The notes: generated by a model not told the origin, from the letters alone. A DNA stretch of 33,707 nucleotides from a virus (IMGVR_UViG_3300048886_000287:1-33707); one strand, 5' to 3'; shown: positions 9,663 to 21,358, counted from the stretch's first letter. Translations and numbers: made by a program.

Positions 9663-10505
9663 TTATCCTACTAAATGCCCACTGAACCAACTGTCTGCAT
9701 CAATGTCAGTTTGACTTGAGCCTCCACTTTGATGGATTTGTATAAAAGCTGTTTGTCCAGCCGTTAGATAATATGTCAGACTGCTATTCATTGCGAAGAA
9801 AGTATTATCCTGTCCAAAGTCAGGGTCAAACAAATGCCCCTGTCTTTGAGTGCCACCTATTTGCCACATAAATAAATAATACCCAGCAGCAGAGTCTATA
9901 TTTTCTAATCTCAGATATGAACTGAAATGATAAAATCCGTTGACAGGAGCCGTAAAAGTATTACTTGCAAAGTTGCTGCCTTGGTCAAAAACTTCAGTTT
10001 CAAATGAAACTGTTACGGATGAATTTACGGCAATGTCAGTTTGTTTACCTGATTTATGAACATAAAACGCTGGCAATGCTGGTTTAGTAACAATACCACC
10101 ATCTGCAATGGCTATAGCATCATCACCATCAGTAAACTCAATTAATGGTGTTTGTATTGATGTGGTGCCACTGACTATTGGTGAAGATATATTTCCACTA
10201 AACGCACCACCATTGATCGCACTAACAGTGTCAGCCACGGCAAAGCTATCGTAGACAATCATCTCGACGACATCGCTAGTGCTTGCCCCTGTTGTTAGTA
10301 CAACGCTTGTGCCTGTCGTACTAGCGTAATCAGTGACTGGCTTGAGAAGCACACCGTTTTGATACACATCCATGTACAGCGTGTCTGAATAGGCAAGGGC
10401 TATGCCGTTGGCATCGTTGCCGCTGAATGTCGTTTGTCCAGAGGTGGCTGCGTAGATGTACCTTGCGCGAACTCCATCGCCAAGGCTGCGTCCTATGTAT
10501 GGCAT
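9663..10505 (-). CDS. Tail fibre/adhesin with a C-terminal C1q-like domain
   Basis: 'PAF...VSFETEVFDQGSNFASNTFTAPVNGFYHF...WFSGHLV' C1q signature; N-terminal 'YxATSGQTTF..DVYQNGVLL..DY' tail module. Confidence 0.8.
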   Translation of the reverse strand: MPYIGRSLGDGVRARYIYAATSGQTTFSGNDANGIALAYSDTLYMDVYQNGVLLKPVTDYASTTGTSVVLTTGASTSDVVEMIVYDSFAVADTVSAINGGAFSGNISSPIVSGTTSIQTPLIEFTDGDDAIAIADGGIVTKPALPAFYVHKSGKQTDIAVNSSVTVSFETEVFDQGSNFASNTFTAPVNGFYHFSSYLRLENIDSAAGYYLFMWQIGGTQRQGHLFDPDFGQDNTFFAMNSSLTYYLTAGQTAFIQIHQSGGSSQTDIDADSWFSGHLVG

Positions 10506-11337
10506 ATTAATTCCTATCCAATGCTTGAGGCATCATCTCTTGCTTTGCGGTTTTGGTAGTCGCTACGAGCAACGATGAGAGCAACAAAGTCAGCCTGATT
10601 ACTAGGGATAGCGTCAGTAAAGCTATCATCGTTCATTAGCTTTGTTGTCCACTCTGACTGCATCCGCTTCCAACAGTTGTTGATTTTGCCATCAACCGCT
10701 GCCTGTATCCAAGCATCAAGACCAGCATTGTCGCTGTCGTTGTATAAATCGTTGCTCAAGATTTTCTGTTGTAAGTCAGTCAGTACAACTGATTTAGTAT
10801 GATTTGCCATTTTGTGCCTCCTTTATGACAGGGCTATTTCACCCGATTAACAAATTAGTACGCCTGTAAAAAAACTTGCTGTTGAAACATCTAGCTGCGC
10901 TGTGCCACTTCCCTGATAAAACCGTACTTTTGCTGTATCATTCGCATCCATATCCGCTGTAATGCTTAAAACCCATGTCCAAGTTTCTGCGTCCATGTCA
11001 AAAGCATCGGGGTCAATAAGATTAAAATAATCTCTATTGGATGTATCAATTTCAAAAGTTATATAAGCGGCTGCTGAATCTATGGCTGCACAATAAAGTT
11101 GATAACTTAATTGATACTTACCAGTCACAGGCGCAGTGAATACATTTGATGCAAAGTTCCCACCCACATCATAAATTTCTGTTCCAAACGCAACATCAAC
11201 ATATCCGTCCTTAGCAAGATTAACTTGTTGTGAGGCTGGAACTACACAAAACGCTGGCTGTGCTGGCATTGTGACAAGGCCACCATCTGCTATGGCTATC
11301 GCATCATCACCATCAGTAAATTCAATCAGTGGTGTTT
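10096..11337. repeat. 58-bp direct repeat pair (10096-10153 and 11280-11337) encoding TPLIEFTDGDDAIAIADGG
   Basis: 53/58 identical by manual alignment; all differences are synonymous. Confidence 0.85.
10514..10810 (-). CDS. Hypothetical protein between the C1q adhesins
   Basis: 98-aa ORF; AAAGGAGG RBS. Confidence 0.75.
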   Translation of the reverse strand: MANHTKSVVLTDLQQKILSNDLYNDSDNAGLDAWIQAAVDGKINNCWKRMQSEWTTKLMNDDSFTDAIPSNQADFVALIVARSDYQNRKARDDASSIG

Positions 11338-11461
11338 TTAGTGATGTTGAACCAGTAAGACTTGTTGTACTGACTGCGCCAGAAAATGTGCCTGTGGTTG
11401 CGTTCAGCGCAGAGGTACTTGGATGTTCAACGCCAATAACTGATTTACCGATATAAGCCAT
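10847..11461 (-). CDS. Second C1q-like domain tail protein
   Basis: 'PAF...VAFGTEIYDVGGNFASNVFTAPVTGKYQL...FFTGVLI'. Confidence 0.8.
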   Translation of the reverse strand: MAYIGKSVIGVEHPSTSALNATTGTFSGAVSTTSLTGSTSLKTPLIEFTDGDDAIAIADGGLVTMPAQPAFCVVPASQQVNLAKDGYVDVAFGTEIYDVGGNFASNVFTAPVTGKYQLSYQLYCAAIDSAAAYITFEIDTSNRDYFNLIDPDAFDMDAETWTWVLSITADMDANDTAKVRFYQGSGTAQLDVSTASFFTGVLIC

Positions 11462-13194: not shown

Positions 13195-16100
13195 CTACTC
13201 ATTTTCTGGATCTCTAAGCATTTGGATATCTTCAAACGCTTGCAATAACCGCTCATTGCCCGGCAACAGCAAAAGCTCTTGAAAAGCGGCATCCATAAAT
13301 TGTGTGTTCAATGACCGCACATCAGTGCGCTTTTTGCGTAATGGCTTTTGATCAAACTCAAAATCTTGAAGCAGCAATTCTTCCATTGCTTCATCAAAAC
13401 TCGCAAAATCAACAGAAACCGGCTCAACATTCATGCCCTTTAGATTTTCTGGCATGTCTTCCATCTTGCCTTTTGCAAGCCAAATTAGGTTTGATTTCTG
13501 CATTTCTGTTAGGGCAACCCTTGCTCCACGCAAAGAATATTTATTGCCTTGAATTGGAATAGGCCAATCTAGTTTTACCAGCTCTTCAACCCATTCTGGT
13601 TGTTTTATTGTTTCTGAAAAAACAATAGGGTTGACGCTGTTGTTTATTCGTAAATATGGGTTTTCTTCAAATGTCGGGCCTCTTGTTACCGGCCTACCAA
13701 GCGTGTCATAGACCGGGATATTAGCGTCCATGTTGTCAGAAAATAGATTGGTATCCATCATATCAAGAAAGCCGTCATAAACCGCGCGCTTGAATATATC
13801 GCCGGGTTCGCCTTTCGGTAATCCAATCAATCGATAATCAGGTTCACCATCAGGCATTTCATCAAGAATATCTTCAGCAGTAAGTCGTTGAACATCCTCT
13901 AAAGTATAAACCTCAAACGGCGCGCCTCTCCTGACCACAGCATTGTCAAGCGCCCTGTCAACGCCGCGCTGTAAAGAGCTGACCGGGTTTGGAACGCCCG
14001 GCACAAGGTTCATCGAACCAAGCGGCCCTTCTGTCATAAGGCTAAAGTCTTCCCGATCTAATGATGACAAAACTCTTGCCACGCCTTGCAACATTGGCAA
14101 TTCACGAAAATAATCAGTGGTGGCAAACACGGCTGCACCAGCCATTGATTGCCGTTCCTCTGCATTTCTTGACATTTCCATGCGTTGCACAGTGCCAGCG
14201 GAAATACCGATCATGCTGGCAACCGGGCCTAAACCAGAATAACCATAATATTCTAACGGCCCATTAGGGTTTCCCCATTTGTCATAAAGAGGCAATTCGT
14301 TACCAGCGTCATCTGTTGGGAAATTTTCTCCCCGAAACACAAGGCTATATGGTTGCCAATTTGGCGGCAATTTTTCGCGTACTTTTTTATCTTTTGGCGT
14401 TGGGCCGGTTATTCTGCCCTGCATCGTATACATAGCAACTTGGCTTGTAACAATTCCACCAAGCGCCATTCTTGCCAACGCTGTCTGCCGTTTTGCTCCA
14501 GTTTTGTAAACATCAGGATACAGAGCGCCAAGCGGAAACCCCATAATGTTTGACCGCTCAATAGTTCGCAAAACATCATTTGTTGGCGCTGTAGCAAATG
14601 GAACAACATACCGGCCAAAAGTTGTGCGCTGCAAAGCAGATGTTGCTTTACCAAAAGCGCCAAGATCACTCATCAATGTGTCGTGACGGCTTTTTAAATC
14701 TAATTCATCTCTGATTTGCCGGGGGCTTAACATTACCATCAAGGCTTCATCATTTGCTTGTTGTCGTGTCGCGCCAAGCTCCAAGGCAGCTTTAGCCTGA
14801 CGATTTGCTTTTACATACAGCTCCCCATTTTGCGACAAGGTTTGAAAAAACCCATCACCGGCAAGCAATCCTCTTGACGGCCAGCTTGTCATTGCATGCA
14901 AATACCGCAACGCCTGACCCGGCACTTTTACGCCAAGACCAAGGTCTAGATCACCGGCACCACCTGAGTAGGTGTTCATCTCAACTTTGTTTACAGCGTC
15001 ACCGGGCTGACCTTTTTTTGCTGCAAGCCCAGCGGCATATAAGGCATCGCCAAAAGTACGATAGAAAGCCATTAGCCGAAAGGCTACATCACTCATGTAA
15101 ACTTGGTCTGTGTAATCAATTTCAGATCCAACGGCGCGGCGTATTCCTCTTTCAGCGCCACCAATCATGCCAGCTATAAATTCCTCTGGCAGTTGAAACC
15201 CCATATATAAAACATTGCCTAAAATGTTTTTGAGCTGCGTTTTTGGGCCTGATAGCAAGCCATTGATATACATATGCTCTAAGCCATGCCGTACCCGGCT
15301 ACCAATTCCAGCTTGTGTTGCTTCGTTAAACGCTCTTGGGCCGTTCTCAGCGGCAACCACTAAACCCCTAGCAGCCGCCTTTAAAGCATCTGCACCACCA
15401 GATGCATCAATGGTTTGTGCGTTTAAAACTGCCGCTTCGGCTGGTGTCATGCCGCCGGTAACAGGAATGTTAAAGGATTGCAGCAATCTTGCTGATTCAG
15501 CTTGAGCGCCTTTAACTTGCAATAATATGCCATTGTGAATAGCAAGCTGCCGTCTGAATTGCAGCATTATAGCATCGTTGGCCCCTTCATTAACTTGCCG
15601 GGCTAGATCTGCCAACCTTGTTGCGCTTTCAGTCATAACAGCTCTTGCCGCTACAGCTTCAGCCGCATTCTCAAAAGCAGTGCCACGCTTTCTTCTCAAT
15701 ATGCTGCGAACCATGCCAAGATCGTCAGCCAATAACTCTTCAGCTTGCTCTAGTGTTTGCACATTGCTGACAACGCCCCTTGTGGCGGCGGTCTGTTCAG
15801 TCTTCTTGCTGGTTGATACAGCTTGGATAAGAGCCTTTACATCATCAGGCGAGTTGATGTTGTCAAAGTTAAAAGGAGCGCCCTCTTCAATGCTATCTTT
15901 AAAACCTTCAACTCTTGCTGTTTCTAGAACCTCTTCAGCTTGGCTTAGTGTTGCAACGCCAGATGAATCTTCGGTTAATCTAAATCCTTGATCCTCTGCC
16001 GTCACGCCTCGCTGACTAGCTGTAACAGTCTGACGCAATTGCTGTTCTGGCGAAAGCTCAGCCGCCTCATCAGCTTCGGCAAGCAAGGCGGCAGTGCGTC

Positions 16101-16488
16101 TGCCTTGTGGGCTTAGATCAGTAGCCCGGTTGCCTTGTTCCTTAAATTTAGCCTGACCCTCTGGTGACAGATTGCGCTGGGCCGATTGTGTCTGGGTGGC
16201 GCGATAATTAAGGTTATCAGGCTCTATATTCCCTTCAGCCGGTACGCGCGGTTTTTGATCAATTCCTTTATCTTGAAGAACGCCTTGTGCAAATTTTCCT
16301 TTGGGTTTGGTTTTTTCAACACCACCAAATAAGCGGAATAGATCTGCAACAATATTGCCTTTGCCAGCCACTTGTATGCCGGGATCAGACGCAAATTCTG
16401 TGACCCCACCTTGTGCAACATCACGCATAGCGTTTTCGTTGAGCTGAGCGAGTTGCTCAGTCTCAGATGGTGGCATCTGGATTGACAT
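13195..16488 (-). CDS. Large internal virion (ejection) protein, T7 gp16-like position (1097 aa)
   Basis: Size, helical Ala-rich composition and position just before the tail fibre. Confidence 0.7.
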   Translation of the reverse strand: MSIQMPPSETEQLAQLNENAMRDVAQGGVTEFASDPGIQVAGKGNIVADLFRLFGGVEKTKPKGKFAQGVLQDKGIDQKPRVPAEGNIEPDNLNYRATQTQSAQRNLSPEGQAKFKEQGNRATDLSPQGRRTAALLAEADEAAELSPEQQLRQTVTASQRGVTAEDQGFRLTEDSSGVATLSQAEEVLETARVEGFKDSIEEGAPFNFDNINSPDDVKALIQAVSTSKKTEQTAATRGVVSNVQTLEQAEELLADDLGMVRSILRRKRGTAFENAAEAVAARAVMTESATRLADLARQVNEGANDAIMLQFRRQLAIHNGILLQVKGAQAESARLLQSFNIPVTGGMTPAEAAVLNAQTIDASGGADALKAAARGLVVAAENGPRAFNEATQAGIGSRVRHGLEHMYINGLLSGPKTQLKNILGNVLYMGFQLPEEFIAGMIGGAERGIRRAVGSEIDYTDQVYMSDVAFRLMAFYRTFGDALYAAGLAAKKGQPGDAVNKVEMNTYSGGAGDLDLGLGVKVPGQALRYLHAMTSWPSRGLLAGDGFFQTLSQNGELYVKANRQAKAALELGATRQQANDEALMVMLSPRQIRDELDLKSRHDTLMSDLGAFGKATSALQRTTFGRYVVPFATAPTNDVLRTIERSNIMGFPLGALYPDVYKTGAKRQTALARMALGGIVTSQVAMYTMQGRITGPTPKDKKVREKLPPNWQPYSLVFRGENFPTDDAGNELPLYDKWGNPNGPLEYYGYSGLGPVASMIGISAGTVQRMEMSRNAEERQSMAGAAVFATTDYFRELPMLQGVARVLSSLDREDFSLMTEGPLGSMNLVPGVPNPVSSLQRGVDRALDNAVVRRGAPFEVYTLEDVQRLTAEDILDEMPDGEPDYRLIGLPKGEPGDIFKRAVYDGFLDMMDTNLFSDNMDANIPVYDTLGRPVTRGPTFEENPYLRINNSVNPIVFSETIKQPEWVEELVKLDWPIPIQGNKYSLRGARVALTEMQKSNLIWLAKGKMEDMPENLKGMNVEPVSVDFASFDEAMEELLLQDFEFDQKPLRKKRTDVRSLNTQFMDAAFQELLLLPGNERLLQAFEDIQMLRDPENE

Positions 16489-16501: not shown

Positions 16502-16524
16502 AAAAAAAGGGCGCTGATGCGCCC
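16502..16524 (-). terminator. Intrinsic terminator-like hairpin inside the late operon
   Basis: Minus strand GGGCGC-ATCA-GCGCCC-TTTTTTT. Confidence 0.7.
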
Positions 16525-16582: not shown

Positions 16583-16786
16583 TTATTGTTGCCTAAATTC
16601 TTCTGGCAATTCTAACTCTTCTTCTGCGCTCAACTCTTCTGGAACTTCACCCATGTAAGCAACATTCAAATAATTTTCTCTAGTAAGAGGAATTTTGTTT
16701 TTTAACATCAAATCTAAAACTGGGTTACTGCCAGCTTGGGGGGTTGATGCCACCGGCTTGTTCTGTAACTGCTGATCTTGCTTCAT
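16583..16786 (-). CDS. Small acidic protein (candidate inhibitor/immunity partner)
   Basis: 67 aa; 'IPLTRENYL..AYMGEVPEELSAEEELELPEEF'; overlaps the 3' end of the upstream gene; start uncertain. Confidence 0.7.
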   Translation of the reverse strand: MKQDQQLQNKPVASTPQAGSNPVLDLMLKNKIPLTRENYLNVAYMGEVPEELSAEEELELPEEFRQQ

Positions 16787-19088
16787 CTAAAGATACCTTT
16801 CCAGACCTGTAATCGTACCAAATTTTATTGATATCGTCTACATTTTTAGCCTGTGCTTTAAATTTATCTGTGAACAAGCCGCGTACTGCTTCCCATGTTA
16901 TTGATTGCATTTCTCTTGGTAAAACGCCTCTTTCTGTTGCTGCCCGGCGATACGCCTCTGCATACAAGCCGTAATTACCTTGAACACCAGTTACAGCGCT
17001 GTTTTTAGTCGCGCCTTTCCAGTCAGGTTTTTGTTTTGCAATCATAGGCGAACTACCAAAATTGTGATGCACCTCAGTCGATTGCCCAGATAACGGCCTC
17101 AGTAGAGATGCCGCAACAGCATGTGTGTCGATAGTTACATCACCATTAGGGCCGTCTGGATCTAATATATTATTATAAAAACTGCGAACTTTGTGTTTTG
17201 TACCCATAAGCGGCGTTAAAACATCTTTGCCACCGCCGCTCTCAAAAGCTTCTACCGCTTTCGCTATTTCTGTGATCGAACCCCAGCCAGTACCTTTTGG
17301 TTTGCCGTCAGCATTTGTTGCTATTTCAAGAAAATCACCTTCTGGCGAAACTATGCGGTGGCTTCTGTCGTTGTATGTCTCATCATAAATACGCAACCAA
17401 ATAGCTTTTTCTGCTGGCAGTTCTAGCTCACCAAGAGTTTTGCCAACAATGCTGTCTAGCATAGATTCTTTTAGCCAGCCGCCTTTGTACTTCATCATCT
17501 CTTTTGTAAATTTTGTATTTTGCTGCGATGCTAAAATGTCTATTGTGCGCTCACCCAAGCTGACATTCATATACCAATCTTTTTGCGGTGACAGCGCAGC
17601 TAATACTCCAGCAACGCTGGAATCTGGTATCTTATATTTATCGGCTAGTCTGTTTGCGATAGCGTTAGCGCCTTTATACCAAAGCTTTGATCGTTGTCTT
17701 GTCTGTTCTGGCACTTGGTCAAACACAAACAACAGATTATTTTTTGCATGATTTATAAATGCTTCGCTGGCTTCCTCTGTTGGTAAAGCAGCTTCAGCCT
17801 CTGTCATATTTGGATAGGCTCTTACAATACCAACATTATGATCAAATATTTTTGGGTCAGTTTTTATTTCGTCTAAGCCAATTTGCAAAGGCTCATTGAC
17901 CGGGTCTTCTGTTGATTTCACCGCCGTTGGTAATCGTGTTGATATTCTATTAGGGTTTGCCGTTGTTCCGACAGCCCTGCCAGCCGCAGATATAGCCTCA
18001 TCGATCATTGGCATAGGATCAACGCCAGCCCCTAGCGTCACGCTATTGTCAGCTTGGCGCTCAGCAATCCGGGCATCAGCCGCATCACCAGCCCGGCCTA
18101 TGGCGCGCTTGGTTCCATCGATGATCTGGCCGAATGGTATTAGCCGGGCAGTCTTGATAGCGCCCTCAACTACGCCACCAATGATGCCGCCCTCTAGGGC
18201 TGTCTTGGCGCGCTTCGTTAGTTCGCCGTCAGTGTCGTATTTTTCTATCTGAGACAGAAACGCTTGCAATACAGCGTTGCGCTCTTCTGGCGGTGCCATC
18301 TCAAGATGCTCAGTGATAACATTGGCAAGCGTGGGGTCATCTGGGTTGAACGCTGTAAAATCAGCAATAGCGCCCCAGATCATGCCGCGCGCCACCGGGT
18401 TATATGTGGTCATAGCTCTGACCATCTTTGCAGCCGGTACAGCGGCAACGCTGAATTGTGTTATTGTCTCAGTAAGATTGCCAAGGGTTTCGTTGTCATA
18501 AGGCTGGCTTGCCCAATCAACTATAGCGTCAGGCATTGGGATCGCATCGTTCACAAAGCCTTTATAGCTATCCATCATGCCTTTCATTGAATCAATGTCA
18601 CCAAAGGCGTTTTTAACCGGCTCCATGCCAACAGCCTCTAACCCGACATTCATAACATTTTTGGCTAGTTCAACAGGCGCGCCAGCTATAAATGCCGCTG
18701 CATCAAGCATTTCACTAGCGCCCTTGTCAGCTCCAATAAACATGCCCTTTGATATGTCATTTGTAATGGAACTATCGACAGGCCCGGCTGACATGTTACC
18801 AAGTGTAACGCCCCTATCATCTGCATCTAGTGGGGGAAACGGCTCTAAGCCAATGGCTCTCATTTCGTCCGCTAGTTCGTATCGTTCAAATTCAACATCA
18901 CCATCAAAATCAATATCTGACATTGGCCGAAATGAATCTTGCAAAACATTGGTAACCGGCTCTGACCCGGTGACCATGCCCTCTTCATTAAACAATGGGG
19001 TTGGCTCAGTATCTGAAACCTTGCCCACTGGATCAATGATTTGCTCTGCGTCTAGTGAGGGTGAGGCTTTTGTCATATCCATTATCAA
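16725..19088 (-). CDS. Internal virion protein fused to a C-terminal HhH-GPD/EndoIII-like (DUF7178-like) domain
   Basis: N-terminal acidic and Gly/Ala helical ejection-protein-like region; C-terminal 'LWY', 'AALSPQKDW..N', 'HKVRSFYNNI', 'VTIDTHA', 'MQSITW'. Confidence 0.7.
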   Translation of the reverse strand: MIMDMTKASPSLDAEQIIDPVGKVSDTEPTPLFNEEGMVTGSEPVTNVLQDSFRPMSDIDFDGDVEFERYELADEMRAIGLEPFPPLDADDRGVTLGNMSAGPVDSSITNDISKGMFIGADKGASEMLDAAAFIAGAPVELAKNVMNVGLEAVGMEPVKNAFGDIDSMKGMMDSYKGFVNDAIPMPDAIVDWASQPYDNETLGNLTETITQFSVAAVPAAKMVRAMTTYNPVARGMIWGAIADFTAFNPDDPTLANVITEHLEMAPPEERNAVLQAFLSQIEKYDTDGELTKRAKTALEGGIIGGVVEGAIKTARLIPFGQIIDGTKRAIGRAGDAADARIAERQADNSVTLGAGVDPMPMIDEAISAAGRAVGTTANPNRISTRLPTAVKSTEDPVNEPLQIGLDEIKTDPKIFDHNVGIVRAYPNMTEAEAALPTEEASEAFINHAKNNLLFVFDQVPEQTRQRSKLWYKGANAIANRLADKYKIPDSSVAGVLAALSPQKDWYMNVSLGERTIDILASQQNTKFTKEMMKYKGGWLKESMLDSIVGKTLGELELPAEKAIWLRIYDETYNDRSHRIVSPEGDFLEIATNADGKPKGTGWGSITEIAKAVEAFESGGGKDVLTPLMGTKHKVRSFYNNILDPDGPNGDVTIDTHAVAASLLRPLSGQSTEVHHNFGSSPMIAKQKPDWKGATKNSAVTGVQGNYGLYAEAYRRAATERGVLPREMQSITWEAVRGLFTDKFKAQAKNVDDINKIWYDYRSGKVSLDEARSAVTEQAGGINPPSWQ

Positions 19089-20809: not shown

Positions 20810-21358
20810 TTAAACACTGAAATTATCCCAATAGGATTGTGAGAACATGCCATAGTCGCTGGCGTTACCAATAGTAGTGCCAAGCCCAGTGAGCAAAGCA
20901 GTTGTGCCTTGAGCCGCATAGGCTGATGCTTGGGCCTGACCGCCCATGCGGCTGACCTTGGCGCGCATCCCGGCCTCGACCTTGCGGTCTTCTTGCTCAA
21001 GAATTGCTATAGATGTGTTGTAAGCATCAATGGATAATTCATATTCAAACTCAGCGGCTGACGCTAATTCCGCTGTGACAGGCGCGCCCCGGCTAAGCTC
21101 TATGCCGCCACCACCAAATATTGCGGTGCCGGTTCCTCTAAACCTTCTAAATGCTTTGCCTTTGCGCTCGTTAGATATTTGAAGATTACGGCCAAGGATT
21201 TCAATCTGGCGGTCTGCAATATCAATGTCGCGCTCAATAATCTTGGCGTTTTCTTCGCCAATGGCCTTTGCAAACGCAGCCGCTTTATCACCAGCTTTCT
21301 TTTCTTGATACGCGCCATAGAGACTAAGGCCGACTGATGCTATTTGCCAAAAGCTCAT
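20810..21358 (-). CDS. Internal virion protein (gp14-like)
   Basis: 182 aa, Gly/Ala-rich ends and a coiled-coil middle; follows tail tube B. Confidence 0.7.
   Translation of the reverse strand: MSFWQIASVGLSLYGAYQEKKAGDKAAAFAKAIGEENAKIIERDIDIADRQIEILGRNLQISNERKGKAFRRFRGTGTAIFGGGGIELSRGAPVTAELASAAEFEYELSIDAYNTSIAILEQEDRKVEAGMRAKVSRMGGQAQASAYAAQGTTALLTGLGTTIGNASDYGMFSQSYWDNFSV

Follow-up and report, generated by a model that had tools for sequence, protein, structure and literature searches.

A 787-aa gene in the internal-virion block of the phage record IMGVR_UViG_3300048886_000287 ends in a domain with the predicted fold of the HhH superfamily, and a 67-aa ORF that overlaps its end in the +1 frame is, on the evidence of sequence conservation, a real gene. 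We weigh at about even chances the reading in which the two form a putative virion-delivered base-excision effector and its +1-frame cognate inhibitor. The window, by which we mean the whole stretch of DNA analysed (a 33.7-kb phage record, 33,707 nt, 93% complete), encodes integrase, terminase, portal, capsid and tail genes according to Pfam and PHROG profile searches.

The locus and its virion context

Both ORFs lie where a first-pass annotation, made from the sequence alone, had put them, and the motifs that it quoted (AALSPQKDW..N, HKVRSF, VTIDTHA and MQSITW) are all present, with a Lys-Asp spacing of 21. Below, P0003 denotes residues 377-787 with their own numbering, A3 the alignment of 146 long-form homologues and A5 that of the short form.

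16725-19088, minus strand: 787-aa ORF, carrier plus C-terminal DUF7178 domain
18036..19088, minus strand: N-terminal carrier, residues 1-351; carriers 60-79% identical occupy the same slot of L482-L488 with other C-terminal domains
17979..18035, minus strand: carrier-effector junction, residues 352-370, LGAGVDPMPMIDEAISAAG, where carrier similarity stops and a new cassette starts
16725..17960, minus strand: long-form DUF7178 domain, residues 377-787 (P0003), from Pfam, AlphaFold, fold searches and a profile match to the short form
17271..17525, minus strand: insertion of ~85 aa, residues ~522-606, without counterpart in short standalone DUF7178 (hhalign of A3 against A5, probability 99.7)
17190..17192, minus strand: K633 (K257 of P0003), predicted catalytic lysine at the start of helix 256-266; 146/146 in A3, invariant in A1 and A5 (conservation partly selected by the search patterns)
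17127..17129, minus strand: D654 (D278 of P0003), predicted catalytic aspartate after a Pro/Gly-rich loop and before helix 279-286; 146/146
16893..16907, minus strand: Q728-x3-W732, predicted guanine-reading and stacking pair; 145 and 144 of 146 (partly selected likewise)
16795..16799, minus strand: Shine-Dalgarno-like AAGGT, 8 nt 5' of the partner ATG and within the domain's last helix
16583-16786, minus strand: 67-aa acidic partner ORF in the +1 frame, conserved core at residues ~20-65, net charge -6
16502..16524, minus strand: terminator-like hairpin with U-tract, 3' of the partner gene; weak, with one found against 0.9 expected in shuffles

The two ORFs overlap by 62 nt. Judged from the sequence, the true start of the larger is likely the ATG at 19082 (785 aa) and not the TTG at 19088. 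The gene follows the tail genes, adjoins a 569-aa ORF and is flanked by matches to the internal-virion families phrog_418 (20810-21358, E 4e-4) and phrog_6651 (13195-16488, E 7e-14), so that its placement in the internal-virion block by the first-pass annotation holds. Residues 1-376 have a net charge of -33, and the N-terminal carrier is likely an ejection or core moiety. Across 48 loci (78 neighbours scanned, 23 matched), PHROG-matched neighbours are head, connector or tail genes in 13 of 23 cases, the others being lysis (3), DNA metabolism (2) and unknown (5), and ART-PolyVal or LPD domains occur in 10 of 20 long hosts of the domain. By analogy with T7-type biology, and from gene position and neighbours, packaging of the 787-aa protein in the virion is likely. 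The junction motif is local, being present in 22 of 208 long hosts, and terminator-like hairpins are found at 9 of 75 end-of-gene loci against 1 of 119 controls, a weak signal.

Elsewhere in the window, the gp16-like downstream gene (13195-16488) varies among near-identical cassettes, with several unrelated N-termini in L001-L013; two neighbouring C1q/BclA-like tail fibre domains lie at 9663-11461, and a 335-aa ORF with a weak Cas4-like match (573-1580; phrog_1706, E 0.004) is close to an ERF recombinase.

A predicted glycosylase fold nearest to OGG2 and AGOG

Residues 377-787 match Pfam DUF7178 (PF23802) with 99.2 bits (E 3.6e-28), exceeding the family's curated threshold of 27 bits, and this is the only Pfam domain found in the 787-aa protein. 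The family is common (by estimate, ~1,200 IMG/VR stretches contain our search patterns); 1,325 homologues were recognised among 7,999 scored candidates, and a text search of the literature for DUF7178 found no paper. Fifteen columns are invariant across 146 homologues, which is beyond chance; the conservation of K257, R259, F261, N264, Q352 and W356 (P0003 numbering) is in part a product of the search patterns, and that of W94, Y95, S124, P125, W129, N132, T276, D278, T279 and H280 is independent of them. The domain ends in PPSWQ or runs on in polyproteins. There is also a short standalone form of ~200 aa, annotated in GenBank as N-glycosylase/DNA lyase in phage S-CRES3 (gp63), which aligns to the window family with an hhalign probability of 99.7; a separate search for ‘shorter’ homologues returned fragments only. 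In the assembly of an uncultured archaeon the domain and partner occur twice (L189, L203).

AlphaFold modelled residues 377-787 from the 146-sequence alignment with a pLDDT of 97.6. With this model Foldseek placed Pa-AGOG first but weakly (E 0.11, TM 0.26/0.36), and VIA re-alignment of 790 chains gave T. maritima OGG2 (Tm1821) as the best match (Z 9.1, rmsd 3.9, 186 residues aligned), with further Z scores of 8.6 for DUF2419, 8.2 for Pa-AGOG, 7.7 for D. radiodurans EndoIII-3 and 4.3 for PUGT. The first 29 rows are of HhH type, counting DUF2419 and PUGT, which we take to belong there, and the next row falls to Z 3.4. With a model of the short form, the top eight Foldseek matches are all OGG or AGOG and EndoIII ranks 34-35; VIA over 48,161 chains returns HhH-type proteins in all of the top 22 places, with a best Z of 12.5 (OGG2), and 9.3 for EndoIII, 7.2 for DUF2419 and 4.8 for PUGT. 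In the ESM Atlas the long form falls into DUF7178 clusters, and the short form yields no more than leads (0.78-0.81) to Ogg-HhH and AGOG. The models thus predict a two-domain helical fold of the HhH superfamily, nearest to OGG2/AGOG rather than EndoIII. Of the first-pass claim of an EndoIII-like glycosylase, the superfamily and the conserved Lys and Asp stand, and the likeness to EndoIII in particular does not. Among BFVD matches (rows 17-49) there are many remoter structural relatives, 12-18% identical, in giant proteins of uncultured phages, which suggests further glycosylase-like clades.

Sequence comparison was silent on this relationship. Searches of the PDB with P0003, A1, A3 and A5 gave nothing meaningful; no PF00730 or PF00633 match to a canonical hairpin was found in the domain by Pfam; hhalign against shallow HhH alignments of EndoIII and MutY (8, 7 and 3 sequences) reached a best probability of 1.3, below block-shuffled scores; and NCBIfam and PADLOC held no relevant match. 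A search of 61 archaeal genomes retrieved no AGOG genes, with the positive control also silent, so that no AGOG profile was obtained.

By motif order, rather than by superposition, K633 and D654 would be equivalent to the Lys and Asp of HhH-GPD enzymes, and in the model they sit at the expected helix ends. Together with Q728 and W732 they make the domain a predicted Lys/Asp glycosylase with a guanine-type pocket: Q728-x3-W732 matches the pattern of Q315/F319 in OGG1, D194/W198 in OGG2 and D218/W222 in AGOG, and AGOG, whose hairpin is also atypical, has the same order of K140, D172 and D218-x3-W222 (available portion of PMC3397491). With OGG2/AGOG (Tm1821 3N0U, MjOgg 3FHF/3KNT, Pa-AGOG 1XQO/1XQP) the domain shares the two-domain HhH fold, the Lys, the Asp after a Pro/Gly loop and the polar-x3-Trp; it differs in being only 8-16% identical, in its ~85-aa insertion, in having neither a canonical hairpin nor a C-terminal lysine, and in being fused into phage virion-block proteins with a partner gene. 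It has no match to the AGOG family (PF09171; Gln31, Trp69) at E 10, despite the structural Z of 8.2. Endonuclease III carries a C-terminal four-cysteine [4Fe-4S] motif. Endonuclease III (2ABK; PF00730) has its superfamily and the LS-x-Q and D-T-H motifs in common with the domain, in which, however, residues 377-787 contain no cysteine, and hence no such cluster, and do not match PF00730. Lacking both the cysteines and the terminal lysine, the domain is neither EndoIII nor OGG2.

An overprinted partner gene and exchangeable cassettes

Linkage of the small gene was assessed in 293 loci plus the window, with domains covering >300 profile positions; clustering at 90% gave 148 clusters, and dropping five with <300 nt downstream left 143. 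A partner HMM match adjoins the domain end in 121 of these. It is in the +1 frame in 115 loci, in +2 in five and, in one, in frame 0 past the stop; it lies wholly inside the host ORF in 72 of 121 and is fused to the host in none. In 38 loci the host ORF runs at least 150 aa beyond the partner, in proteins of up to 3,800 aa. Conversely, a search with the partner as sole query gave 62 loci, 39 of them distinct, with the domain upstream in 38 and the remaining one cut off, so that the pairing proposed in the first-pass annotation is borne out from both sides; the query P0002, used alone, retrieved no viral loci. A start codon preceded by a Shine-Dalgarno match of at least 4 nt is found before the partner in 106/121 loci, as against 167/1487 control windows. 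Since same-strand phage overlaps favour the +1 phase, that preference by itself is unsurprising. More telling are the substitutions in 29 non-overlapping nested pairs, which over the partner number 305, 103 and 107 at +1-frame positions 3, 2 and 1, and just upstream 388 at host-frame position 3 versus 39 and 72. By this pattern the partner is under selection in its own +1 frame. Across it the host frame encodes 20% Gly, 11% Ser, 11% Ala, 9% Pro and 9% Arg.

The partner is conserved across 120 aligned homologues and its net charge is negative in 111 of them; it matches no family in Pfam, PHROG, NCBIfam or PADLOC. Inter-protein mutual information over 120 pairs (Meff 70) has a top Z of 7.2, against up to 6.5 with random pairing. 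No promoter enrichment was detected upstream (7/121 vs 11/242), so a separate promoter is not supported, and nothing points to the partner being expressed on its own in lysogens. An in-frame fusion in L026-type loci was ruled out, the partner being nested in +1 there as well. In the cultured-collection record LS06-2018-MD07 (L082 / OP947163, L481) the giant CDS is annotated, a 3,100-aa reading frame named methyltransferase, and the partner nested in it is missing from the annotation. At L077:7163-8419 it forms the N-terminus of a 416-aa protein, and in L025, L034, L035, L050 and L057 it is lengthened to ~90 aa and still nested. Directly downstream of the domain, L193, L194, L197, L182, L185 and L190 carry acidic +1 ORFs that do not resemble the main family and may belong to additional partner families.

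Twenty-two of the 143 clusters have no nearby partner match, although one has a partner at +447 nt and eight carry diverged +1 ORFs (by eye), leaving ~13 without partner. All 21 partner-less rows of A3 keep K257 and D278. In the complete genomes CRP-738 and G067 no partner was found genome-wide, and one of five records searched has one; among the short-form loci examined it is absent throughout (0/81).

The carrier, used as query, gave 12 loci with the same gene order. In the 11 whose C-terminus is visible, none is of window type; instead, they carry types B (2), C (3), D (4) and E (2). In L214, a 95% identical domain sits on a 56% identical carrier. Types E and C match DUF7178 weakly (E 2e-8 and 2e-4), types C, D and E have K-x3-F, an Asp at +18 and Q/H-x3-W in common, and type B, by eye, has a like motif order with longer spacing; for types B and D the likeness to glycosylases lies in motif order alone, hhalign of D against A3 giving E 0.13. 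Own small genes, always in +1, follow type C cassettes in 36 of 40 distinct cases (the four misses are truncated loci) and type D cassettes in 12 of 12, counts that speak for conservation and frame and not for independent discovery, because these very loci supplied the seeds for the partner HMMs. Four type C loci and one type D locus have the gene nested with at least 100 more host codons. The C and D partner HMMs had no cross-matches at the partner site of DUF7178 loci, and the window-type HMM gave one weak off-site match in type D, so that three cassette types (window, C and D) have their own unrelated partners; no partner was seen at type E loci. In types B and C (L482-L486) the glycosylase-like part is followed by another C-terminal domain, ~270-300 aa long and unmatched in Pfam. 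In type C the partner gene lies beyond this domain (~270 aa there), and it may serve that domain rather than the glycosylase-like part. Net charges of the C and D partner examples are 0 and +5; the first-pass idea of a Ugi-like DNA mimic thus suits the window-type partner by charge and fails for the slot in general, where partners are neutral or basic.

A proposed injected effector or a specialist enzyme

A conserved carrier with a variable C-terminus and a small gene that changes with the cassette are the marks of polymorphic toxin systems, and both are found here, the second in three cassette types. This layout, of a carrier with exchangeable C-terminal enzymes that each have their own small gene, favours an injected glycosylase/lyase with an inhibitor. 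The 787-aa protein would, as T7-type ejection proteins do, become part of the core and pass into the cell along with the DNA; there K633 and D654 would cut out a guanine-type base, whether ordinary or modified, and leave a nick in DNA belonging to the host or to a competing element. The partner would be translated from the same late transcript via its own ribosome-binding site and would bind the domain, which would thereby stay inactive both in the producing cell and in the surroundings of the packaged genome; the newly infected cell would hold no excess partner. Over the partner, the host frame could be read as a Gly/Ser/Ala/Pro/Arg linker, so that an effector-immunity pair would fit into the interior of a polyvalent protein of 3,000 aa. 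With the partner start located within the last helix of the effector, recombination would not easily separate the two.

Nested +1 genes for binding partners are familiar from the Rz/Rz1 spanins, which are lysis proteins, and Ugi is a small acidic DNA-mimic inhibitor of a host UDG-fold enzyme; the present layout is like the former with a different function, and the candidate target, as opposed to that of Ugi, is the phage's own HhH enzyme. The MuF polymorphic toxins of temperate phages, as described in the available text of PMC12226406, likewise join a carrier, a variable C-terminal effector and a cognate immunity gene to virion genes. The 787-aa protein, however, has no MuF match in Pfam or PHROG, its effector is of predicted glycosylase fold and possibly internal, and its partner is an overlapping or nested +1 gene. 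The phage polyvalent proteins (Iyer et al., 2017; PMC5512222) are a further parallel: relatives of the domain lie within giant proteins that also bear ART-PolyVal, LPD3/22/38 and methylase domains, whereas the window protein has only DUF7178 and not several LPD/ART-PolyVal domains. Neither ‘glycosylase’ nor ‘overlap’ occurs in the main text of that paper, and no such system is described in the available portions of Iyer 2017 (PMC5512222), Iyer 2021 (PMC7824862) and PMC5336643, nor are swapped cognate partners in the openly accessible main texts and listings searched.

Among other readings, one that we hold unlikely, at perhaps one chance in every few, is that the injected glycosylase is specialised for the 7-deazaguanines of competing phages or for host-defence adducts on phage DNA and is harmless to ordinary DNA, with the partner a chaperone, activator or packaging adaptor. 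The HhH glycosylases Dag1 and Dag2 are weapons of this sort; according to the accessible part of the report, Dag1 uses K118, D132, D184 and W188 (D184-x3-W188), and its cutting is confined to phage DNA with modified guanine (10.1101/2025.10.29.685425). The K...D...x-x3-W order of the present domain is alike, a likeness of residue order, although the Dags are host defence proteins and this domain is phage-encoded among virion genes. Intact domains without partner exist, the partner is tied to the insertion-bearing long form only, and no base-modification gene was seen among the 46 window ORFs scanned, all of which would suit such an enzyme. Three unrelated partner families, each fixed to its own cassette, are nevertheless the usual pattern of cognate inhibitors, and the window-type partner is acidic.

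It is improbable that the domain is an 8-oxoG glycosylase packaged to repair oxidative damage in the phage DNA once this has been injected, its partner just keeping the enzyme quiet in the capsid, even though the top structural matches are 8-oxoG glycosylases, the short homologue S-CRES3 gp63 is annotated N-glycosylase/DNA lyase and many loci are aquatic. Five divergent cassettes alternating in one slot of close relatives fit conflict better than housekeeping, and this swapping also weakens the repair of light damage, an option raised in the first-pass annotation. Moreover, the C-terminal lysine through which OGG2 senses 8-oxoG (available portion of PMC3397491) is missing.

Another chemistry on the same fold, either a DUF2419-like nucleotide N-glycosylase or a base-modifying transferase of the gp46/PUGT kind, acting on host nucleotides or protecting injected DNA, has little in its favour beyond the window model, in which DUF2419 (Z 8.6) ties with OGG2 (9.1) and PUGT reaches 4.3; with the short model OGG2 (12.5) stands clear of DUF2419 (7.2) and PUGT (4.8), and the Lys and Asp are kept, so we hold it a slim prospect. 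We reject as very improbable an alternative C-terminus made by programmed +1 frameshifting, with which the +1 phase in 115/121 loci and the constant position at the domain end would agree, given an own start with Shine-Dalgarno sequence in 106/121 at many differing offsets, six loci in another frame at or beyond the host end, no in-frame fusion, and a +1 frame open as few as 5 codons upstream.

The reading of an injected effector with its inhibitor leads to a wider proposal, which we put forward tentatively and at somewhat less than an even chance: that tailed phages possess a widespread polymorphic arsenal of virion-injected glycosylase toxins with overprinted cognate inhibitor genes, insertable anywhere in polyvalent virion genes. 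DNA glycosylase toxins injected by virions are an effector class not found in the literature searched. If the proposal is true, base excision joins the weapons injected by phages, mirroring the Dag and Brig1 glycosylases of their hosts, and a nested +1 partner becomes a general sign, invisible to annotation, that a polyvalent protein carries a toxic module. Low-complexity ‘linkers’ that follow an effector module may conceal cognate partner genes missed by annotation, as in OP947163. The partners should render otherwise unclonable effectors testable and may themselves be new glycosylase inhibitors.
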